This document shows, piece after piece, positions 24,341-26,349 of a stretch of 64,000 nt of DNA (positions are counted from its first letter, which is position 1; every line of letters starts with the position of its first letter). The notes under the pieces were generated by a model. The model searched no databases and was not told where the DNA came from. It saw only the letters and a list, made by a program, of their open reading frames with translations. The stretch is taken from assembly GCF_013315695.1 (NCBI RefSeq), contig NZ_CP054353.1. One strand, given 5' to 3'. The position numbers were made by a program, and so were the translations under genes. This DNA is from Escherichia coli. Lineage in GTDB: Bacteria > Pseudomonadota > Gammaproteobacteria > Enterobacterales > Enterobacteriaceae.

Positions 24341-25027
24341 TTAAATGCCGAGTGGGAAAATATCATGGCCTTGTTCCTGCCAACTGGTGAGTTGCTGCTG
24401 TTGGGCGGAGGTTCGATTTTCACCGCACCACACCAGCAATGTACGGCCTTCGAACAGTTCAGGGCGTAGTTGATTGAGCGAGTGGGCGAGGACATCAATG
24501 CGCCATCCTTGTTGACTGGCAATCCAGCCCTCCAGCCACAGACGGGTGGTATCCTGAATATTCCAGCCAACCACCAGCGCATCTTTACCCTGTTTTTTAC
24601 GTGCCGAAGCCAGACAAATGGCAATGTAGTTGATCAGTACGCCGTCGAGGATCGCCAGCAGCGCCTGGAGAGTCGGTTGTTGGCACTGAAGCCGTCGGCG
24701 CAGTGGAATGAACAGATGTGTGGTGAGTGTCTGGGCGGGGTAATCCTGACCGCGCTCTTTGATCCACGTTCGCAGGCTATGCAGATTGCCGCTTTGCAGG
24801 TAAGTCAGTAATGTTTCTTGCTGATCGCGCCAGCCGTTCTGCACATCAACATTTTCATTACTGAGCAGCATTTTTACTTTGCTGACCTGCACGCCATTGT
24901 CGATCCAGCGTTTGATCTCGCGGATCCGGTCAATATCGGCATCGTTGAACAGCCGATGACCGCCGTCTGTCCGTTGCGGTTTCAGCAATCCGTAACGCCT
25001 CTGCCACGCGCGTAACGTGACAGGGAT
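24341..25027 (-). pseudogene. mlrA: MerR-family curli regulator MlrA (YehV), 5' end replaced by prophage DNA
   Basis: Reading frame matches MlrA from ...[26 protein letters not shown] onward; upstream codons diverge and hit an in-frame stop, with no ATG for the native N-terminus (MALYTIGEVALLCDIN missing); first in-frame ATG gives the 215-aa ORF 24341..24988. Confidence 0.7.
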
Positions 25028-25062
25028 TAAGGGTAAACTAACTGATTTTACAAGTTTTTATT

Positions 25063-26349
25063 TTACCCCACTTTCTTATGGGGCATACATGGGACACTTT
25101 CAGATAGTCTTTTGTTAAGGAGTTCTATCTGTTCGTGATTGTTGTCTTTCATCCATGCTCCGTAAACATTGAATACCATTTGTGCGTTTGTGTGGCCCAT
25201 CTGGCTTGCGATAAAACTAGGATTAGCTCCAGCGGCAAGTGACCAGCATGCATAAGTATGCCTGGATTGGTACGATTTTCTGTGTCTCAGACCTGCGTGT
25301 TTTAAGATACTTGTCCATGACTCCCTGATGGAGTCAACCTTATAGTGCGGTCCGGAAAACTGCCGCTGTTTTATTACCTGAGGACTAAAAACAAAAGTGC
25401 ATTTATGCACAGTACTTCTCCCATATTCCCTCTGCTTTACCTCTACAGAATGTTGCTTTCCAAGCATGGTCATTTCCGCCTGACTTTTAAGAGCATCAAT
25501 AGCTGGTTGAACCAGATGAATTGTCCTTCCGGTGCCAGCATCGGTTTTTGGTGGAGTGAATTCGCCAAGTTTTGTATAATTCCTACGGATGGTTATAGTC
25601 CTTGCTTTAAGATCTATATCTTCCCATGCCAGCGATACCAGCTCCCCGTGACGAATACCCGTGTATACAGCGAGAATCCACAGGTTTTTTGTTTGTTGAT
25701 GACGGCAAGCCTCAATAAAACGAATAAATTCGTCACGGGTGAGAGGATCTGGTTTTACCTTGGACTTTTTTAAGGGAGCCAGACCGTTAAATGGGTTTCC
25801 TGAGGTATAACCATTATCTGTTGCAAATTGAAACATTCCAGCTATGGTTGTCATATAGTAGTTTACCGTGACCACTGAGCGCCCTTTTATGGAAGAAGTC
25901 TTTCCATTAGAAAGTTTTTGGTAACCGGTCAACAAATCTCTCCTTACGAAAAGTAAATCCTCTTTTGTTATGGATGAAACCAGTTTTTTTTCACCTAACA
26001 TTGGTAACATGTTTTTAATTACTGACTGGTAACGGTTAAGTGCATTCGCACAAATCTCAATTTTCTTAAGGTCCAACCATTTTTCCGAAAGTGCCTTAAC
26101 GGTTATCTCTCTTTTTCCCAGACCAAAGTGTTTCAGGTTAGGGGAATTAGGGAACTGCGCGGAGTAGTCGAAACTCCCCATTCTGATTGCAAAACAAACG
26201 GAAGTGCGAAGTTCACCAGCGATCTTCCGGTTTTTGGCTGTGTCAGGAACACCGAGGTTTTCTCTGACACGTTTGCCATTATAGTGAAACCATATACGGA
26301 GTGATCCTCCATGGTTTTCAACGCCTGTCGGGTATGATGCGTTACTCAT
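25063..26349 (-). CDS. int: tyrosine-type site-specific integrase
   Basis: 428-aa ORF with R (GIRHGEL), HxxR (SRHTYA) and catalytic Y (VFNVYGAW) motifs; adjacent to the attL junction. Confidence 0.9.
   Translation of the reverse strand: MSNASYPTGVENHGGSLRIWFHYNGKRVRENLGVPDTAKNRKIAGELRTSVCFAIRMGSFDYSAQFPNSPNLKHFGLGKREITVKALSEKWLDLKKIEICANALNRYQSVIKNMLPMLGEKKLVSSITKEDLLFVRRDLLTGYQKLSNGKTSSIKGRSVVTVNYYMTTIAGMFQFATDNGYTSGNPFNGLAPLKKSKVKPDPLTRDEFIRFIEACRHQQTKNLWILAVYTGIRHGELVSLAWEDIDLKARTITIRRNYTKLGEFTPPKTDAGTGRTIHLVQPAIDALKSQAEMTMLGKQHSVEVKQREYGRSTVHKCTFVFSPQVIKQRQFSGPHYKVDSIRESWTSILKHAGLRHRKSYQSRHTYACWSLAAGANPSFIASQMGHTNAQMVFNVYGAWMKDNNHEQIELLNKRLSESVPCMPHKKVG

Follow-up and report, generated by a model that had tools for sequence, protein, structure and literature searches.

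In the 64,000-nt stretch of Escherichia coli DNA analyzed here (the window), the regulator gene mlrA (yehV) is split by a prophage, and its first 16 codons and its promoter are cut off from the remnant of the gene. Our overall reading, to which we assign a probability of about 0.93, is that a prophage insertion of the Sp15/CP-933V type divided mlrA, leaving no full-length MlrA, and that the activation of csgD would consequently be lost or strongly reduced.

The junction was delimited by a BLAST comparison of the window with an unoccupied reference, the 8-kb btsS-mlrA-yohO-yehW locus of K-12 MG1655. A single block was recovered (K-12 positions 3910–8001 with window positions 25030–20938, 97.6% identity). 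The homology of the mlrA region to K-12 thus begins at 20938 and ends at 25030, and the 8-kb locus found no counterpart in the window for the first 43 nt of mlrA, the mlrA promoter, or the whole btsS side. In pairwise alignment with K-12, the sequences are identical from ...CCTGTCACGTTACGCGCGTGGCAGAGG on and unrelated ahead of it. Unoccupied E. coli genomes align with only positions 1–101 of a query spanning window positions 24930–25330, which places the breakpoint at 25030/25031. mlrA is on the minus strand, with its stop at 24341, and the minus-strand translation of 24341–25102 gives the native MlrA sequence, uninterrupted from the junction to the native C-terminus; the missing native residues are 1–16 (MALYTIGEVALLCDIN). 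The first-pass annotation had held that the mlrA frame matches MlrA only from the junction on and that the codons upstream are prophage derived, and had named alignment to K-12 mlrA and to unoccupied loci as the check. The alignments bear this out: the native N-terminus is not intact, and an integrase, an excisionase, and approximately 39 kb of collinear lambdoid genes lie upstream of the junction (table 1).

Table 1. Features of the split mlrA gene and of the prophage (window positions)
Feature	Position	Strand	Basis and remarks
Uniquely host-derived 3′ part of mlrA	24341..25004	-	From third base of W23 codon to stop; translation, K-12 identity, Pfam
TTG, first canonical in-frame start (native Leu29)	24986..24988	-	Gives a 215-aa product without β1, α1, and α2
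att core, attL copy (CCCTGTCACGTTACGCGCGTG on the mlrA strand)	25005..25025	.	Encodes P17–W23; five-way alignment
Phage arm, from core to integrase stop codon	25026..25062	-	Translation; near-identical to the Sp15 int-side junction
Tyrosine integrase (int), 428 aa, full length	25063..26349	-	Pfam Arm-DNA-bind_2 and Phage_integrase
Excisionase (xis), 84 aa, ORF intact	26383..26637	-	ORF; counterpart of the xisR excisionase-family gene annotated in AF3 and MSB1_4I
stx-negative lambdoid prophage	25026..64000, off window end	.	Collinearity with AF3
tRNA-Met, tRNA-Arg, tRNA-Arg	42692-42941		Precede the esterase gene
STnc100	43017-43225	+	Rfam, 131.7 bits
AsxR ("anti stx2 sRNA")	43229-43281	-	Rfam, 63.0 bits, exactly at the gathering score
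nanS-p-like esterase	43434-45395		About 490 bp after the tRNAs

The core common to phage and host encodes codons P17–W23, and uniquely host DNA, which begins at 25004, encodes the wing, helices α3 and α4, and the MlrA_helical and MlrA_C domains. Upstream of PVTLRAW, the mlrA frame is closed by a TAA stop at 25058–25060, followed by eleven codons (AAA CTT GTA AAA TCA GTT AGT TTA CCC TTA ATC), and it contains no ATG, GTG, or TTG between this stop and the TTG at 24988. The remnant has neither the promoter nor the canonical start codon of MlrA, in agreement with the earlier proposal of an in-frame stop and no start for the native N-terminus; no in-frame phage start restoring a complete helix-turn-helix (HTH) is present. 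No Shine-Dalgarno sequence precedes the ATC at 25027, and a GAGG motif lies 9 nt upstream of TTG 24988. A simple consensus scan of the mlrA strand between 24800 and 25400 found no promoter- or terminator-like site, counts being at the level of shuffled sequence.

Database annotation flags the disruption neither in PGAP nor in Sakai. In RefSeq/PGAP, the remnant is entered as a normal "HTH-type transcriptional regulator MlrA" of 228 aa (WP_042101647.1), its start being placed at the non-canonical ATC 25027 (25027–25025), and the pseudogene flag is missing in NZ_LR898874.1 and NZ_OZ547117.1; the Sakai annotation of the remnant (ECs_3014) starts at the TTG and yields 215 aa. Annotation-based surveys would count mlrA as intact and so overlook that it is disrupted in about 8% of complete E. 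coli genomes.

The loss of the N-terminal part of the MerR-type HTH, also put forward in the first-pass annotation, is visible at the domain level. Pfam MerR_1 covers residues 4–72 of native MlrA (profile positions 1–68). On the remnant, coverage begins at profile position 16 if translation is taken from the ATC and at 26 if it is taken from the TTG. Profile positions 1–15, or 1–25 with TTG 24988 as start, are thus missing, and the complete N-terminal winged HTH (positions 1–68) is not retained. MlrA_helical and MlrA_C are found over their full profile lengths (E-values 9e-32 and 1.5e-33, respectively). A structure search returned no solved MlrA structure, the closest being MerR domains of the CarH/LitR type. 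We used a single-sequence AlphaFold2 model of native MlrA (mean pLDDT 60.8, about 80 over the first 60 residues), from which the N-terminal domain alone was taken, and for secondary-structure boundaries only. The model places a strand at residue 4, helices at residues 6–12 and 17–27, and a two-stranded wing at residues 34–42, a predicted arrangement that corresponds to the usual MerR winged HTH. With these modeled boundaries, the insertion is predicted to remove β1 and α1 (residues 1–16), and the recognition helix α2 would be lost as well if translation begins at TTG 24988.

The integrase is transcribed toward the mlrA remnant, in a different reading frame from mlrA, and is identical to the integrase of Sakai Sp15 (ECs_3013) at 420 of 428 positions (98%). 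We aligned five att sequences, namely the window attL, both Sakai Sp15 junctions, the attR of isolate AF3 (the closest complete genome), and the K-12 attB. All five contain the core CC(C)TGTCACGTTACGCGCGTG, at 25005–25025 in the window, and have the same breakpoints; the 21-bp core is identical at the attR of AF3 and of Sakai, and 20 bp of it are present in the K-12 attB. The far end of the AF3 prophage lies approximately 49.3 kb from the int-side junction and adjoins btsS. It carries a 66-nt partial coding sequence (ATGGCGCTTTAC...GATATTAACCCTGTCACGTTACGCGCGTGA) whose translation is MALYTIGEVALLCDINPVTLRA followed by a stop; this stub of 22 codons is present at attR in both AF3 and Sakai, in AF3 together with the mlrA promoter. 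BLAST of the K-12 locus found neither attR nor the mlrA 5′ end within the 64-kb window, the end of which the prophage overruns, and both are known here from the near-identical relatives AF3 and Sakai; by analogy with these, the attR of the window prophage is expected about 10 kb after position 64000. It had been suggested previously that the prophage replaces the 5′ end of mlrA and that attR would be found at its other end. The 5′ end is indeed absent at the junction, but the relatives show it displaced by about 49 kb to the far prophage end, not replaced, and attR, although seen in AF3 and Sakai, is not within the window.

Matches to the core plus far-side arm were found in 17 IMG/VR contigs: 15 display the attR configuration, one has the attP configuration, its int-side arm being joined directly to the far-side arm, and one, with the match at a contig end, is unclassified. 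Together with the five-way att alignment, this attP configuration points to an ordinary integrase-mediated recombination between attP and attB in mlrA codons 17–23. Taking attR from the relatives, the attL and attR cores reconstitute attB exactly. The full-length int, the intact xis ORF, and the attB-regenerating cores, which would characterize a gene-integrity switch, are thus all present, again with attR from relatives.

Two further genomes are informative about this integration module. In NZ_LR898874.1 (MSB1_4I), the best match to the junction, the integrase is interrupted by an IS5-like element, ISKpn26 (4368–5348), and this prophage copy is probably locked in mlrA, whereas the integrase of the window is intact. 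In NZ_CP074760.1 (DEC9B), a close relative of the integrase, accompanied by 30 nt of core-side sequence (query positions 72–401), is found beside a FimD/PapC-family gene and not next to mlrA, which hints at a secondary or alternative site of integration.

The prophage of AF3 (NZ_OZ547117.1, from a blood culture) and window positions 25031–64000 are collinear, at 98–99.7% identity. The sole non-collinear block is window 30109–31102, where AF3 carries a YfdQ-family gene in a segment of about 1.4 kb, and which is probably a mosaic replacement in the early region. The gene order in AF3 is int, xis, yfdP-S-like genes, an XRE-family regulator, Rha-family regulators, a methyltransferase, RusA, and Q in the early part; three tRNAs, a SASA/nanS-p-like esterase, holin, lysozyme, and Rz in the middle; and terminase, lambda-like head and tail genes, J, Lom, a tail fibre, and a DinI-like gene in the late part. 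The part of the prophage inside the window comprises immunity and replication genes, Q, the three tRNAs, and the nanS-p-like esterase, together with lysis genes and, as far as the tape-measure gene, head and tail genes of the lambda type.

Shiga toxin (Stx) phages carry stx in the interval between the tRNAs and the esterase. In the window, this interval (about 490 bp) contains no stx and matches just the sRNA families STnc100 and AsxR in Rfam, and no stx is annotated in the collinear AF3 prophage. The stxAB genes that would identify a Shiga-toxin-converting phage, between the Q/tRNA region and nanS-p, are therefore missing from the window prophage. The earlier designation of yehV as a lambdoid/Stx-phage site holds as regards the site itself, since core and breakpoint are those of Sp15/CP-933V and the integrase is 98% identical, but the prophage that occupies it here is devoid of stx.

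Two other features of the prophage were observed. The large terminase gene (50790–52718, plus strand) carries a frameshift at a stretch of six G (GACACCGGGGGGAATTGTC), with a break near 52190–52200; its C-terminal part goes on in another frame (ORF 52171–52707), and in AF3 the corresponding gene bears the flag "internal stop". This could mean a packaging-defective prophage, or it could reflect a homopolymer sequencing error. Moreover, two tandem Rha-family regulator genes (33678–35417), approximately 78% identical to each other, each adjoin an isrK and C4-antisense RNA match (33724–33909 and 34587–34775), which looks like a duplicated module of the antirepressor type.

Among 5,426 complete E. 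coli genomes, the junction was found in 457 with at least 80% of a 701-nt junction query and in 460 with at least 80% of a 401-nt query, and attB is uninterrupted in 4,944. An evenly spaced sample of the ranking indicates that occupied genomes are mostly O157/O157:H7. The closest matches to the window are non-O157, mostly human isolates (MSB1_4I, AF3, N1, N10, and FDAARGOS_144); the nearest genomes are human rectal and blood isolates, and the host backbone of the window has a rearrangement in common with IAI39. The same integration module is thus also in circulation on prophages without stx, in extraintestinal and commensal lineages from humans.

This rearrangement is seen in the window at an IS110-family transposase gene (DEDD_Tnp_IS110, Transposase_20) at 9313–10338 (plus strand), flanked by 1–9021 and 10800–20900. 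The element links the ybjS-ybjT-ltaE-poxB-hcr-hcp-lysO block with yohP-mdtQ-yohF, two blocks that in K-12 lie more than 1 Mb from each other (about 0.9 and 2.2 Mb), at roughly symmetric positions relative to the terminus. These positions suggest a large rearrangement specific to a lineage, and the junction is found in 92 of the 5,426 complete genomes, IAI39 among them. In the same region, the Rfam Peptidase-S11 cis-regulatory RNA motif is found at its expected location upstream of pbpG (14941–15021, plus strand, 72.8 bits).

The scenario we favor is that a temperate lambdoid phage of the Sp15/CP-933V integration type would have inserted when its integrase recombined attP with the 20–21 bp core in mlrA codons 17–23. 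The int-proximal junction would keep codons 17–243, with loss of the promoter, the ribosome-binding site, the start codon, and residues 1–16. The distal junction, outside the window and beside btsS, should keep the mlrA promoter and a stub of 22 codons ending at a phage-supplied TGA, and would read ...GATATTAA(C/T)CCTGTCACGTTACGCGCGTGACGCAAC... Because mlrA is split over both junctions, no full-length MlrA can be made, and the RpoS/MlrA-dependent activation of csgD, and with it curli and cellulose, would be lost or strongly reduced during integration. As MlrA is an RpoS-dependent activator of csgD, such a lysogen is expected to be curli- and biofilm-poor until the prophage leaves; excision would restore mlrA, given the intact int and xis and the exact regeneration of attB from attL x attR. 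We infer the curli/biofilm phenotype of the window strain by analogy from the literature, and its excision capacity from sequence; the phenotype also depends on a network outside the window (rpoS, the csgD promoter, rcsB, and others).

In O157:H7, prophages in mlrA together with rpoS mutations limit curli and biofilm, and 53 of 55 strains have mlrA occupied, versus 4 of 19 non-O157 Shiga-toxigenic E. coli (STEC) (PMC3874044). Native mlrA and strong biofilm return on excision (PMC5931665), and whether yehV is occupied serves as a standard marker in typing (PMC8309913). Curli production in an extraintestinal O45:K1:H7 strain requires mlrA (PMC6106082). The curli and biofilm poverty of mlrA lysogens is thus established for O157:H7, and the window adds little beyond it.

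An artifactual origin of the junction, through an assembly chimera or chance similarity, was rejected, its probability being practically nil: the identical junction occurs in 457–460 independent complete genomes, Sakai among them. Many phages supply a substitute gene end when they integrate into the end of a gene, and the uninterrupted, unflagged 228-aa mlrA coding sequence called by PGAP would be in line with a substitute N-terminus and start from which a functional MlrA is still made. This is highly improbable and contradicted by the sequence, as the eleven phage codons after the TAA are devoid of ATG, GTG, or TTG and are not similar to MALYTIGEVALLCDIN, and Pfam MerR_1 coverage begins only at profile position 16. 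A phage-supplied start or a fusion with int was likewise discarded, there being no start codon and int being in a different frame. A remnant that is not dead deserves more weight, even if we find it rather improbable: run-off transcription from int, with translation from TTG 24988 or the ATC, would produce an HTH-defective MlrA with residual or altered activity, for example by titrating partners. Indeed, int and the remnant are co-oriented, the scan described above found no terminator-like site on that strand, and the C-terminal domains are intact. According to PMC5931665 (citing Uhlich 2013, Uhlich 2016, and Shaikh & Tarr 2003), the distal portion of mlrA can yield a truncated MlrA by run-off transcription; the same paper, citing Uhlich 2016, has recombinant truncated MlrA restore some Congo-red affinity, although not biofilm, and the remnant may for this reason not be completely inert. 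On the other hand, α1, or both α1 and α2, of the DNA-binding domain would be gone, the ATC at 25027 is without a Shine-Dalgarno sequence, and highly expressed distal mlrA fragments did not raise csgD expression in O157:H7 (PMC5931665).

It is also conceivable, though unlikely, that the insertion acts as a reversible switch, that is, as a case of regulated gene integrity or active lysogeny in which the prophage, defective in packaging but still competent for excision, would turn mlrA and curli on and off in subpopulations. The intact int and xis, the cores that would regenerate attB exactly, and the frameshifted large terminase gene fit such a behavior; mlrA is listed among the known cases of regulated gene integrity (PMC7192596), and spontaneous excision is detectable in O157:H7 (PMC5931665). 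However, cured O157:H7 cells are seldom recovered, excision being apparently transient or detrimental (PMC5931665), there is no sign of regulated excision in the sequence, and the terminase frameshift, in a G6 run, may be a sequencing error. The combination of the last two possibilities in this non-O157, stx-negative background, a domesticated on/off curli switch (packaging-defective, excision-competent) along with a translated HTH-less remnant that modulates the c-di-GMP/MlrA partner module, appears very doubtful.

A split mlrA without full-length product, our preferred reading, is best compared with Sp15 (Stx1, O157:H7 Sakai) and its equivalent CP-933V (EDL933). The window prophage resembles them in its junction at the same nucleotide and core in mlrA codons 17–23, and resembles Sp15 in its 98% identical integrase, the orientation of int and xis toward the remnant of mlrA, and a far end that bears a DinI-like gene; the sizes are similar, 47.9 kb for Sp15 and about 49.3 kb for the prophage in AF3. 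Unlike Sp15, it has no stx operon, its tRNAs being followed by about 490 bp and then the nanS-p-like esterase, its gene content is mosaic, and its host backbone is non-O157. The best phage-database matches are Stx2a_WGPS2 and Stx2a_1447 (AP012537 and AP012536, respectively) of O157:H7, which cover 63% of window 25031–50000 at 91.6% identity, from the integrase end; these phages carry stx2a and have only the early and regulatory parts in common with the window prophage. As in Listeria comK, the Bacillus sigK skin element, and Staphylococcus aureus hlb, the element interrupts a conserved coding region without providing a replacement end, and excision restores the gene. Developmentally regulated excision has been demonstrated in those three systems, whereas the excision documented for mlrA is limited to spontaneous and SOS-induced events (PMC5931665). 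The insertion is of the known Sp15/CP-933V type, from which it departs only by its stx-free prophage and its non-O157 host.
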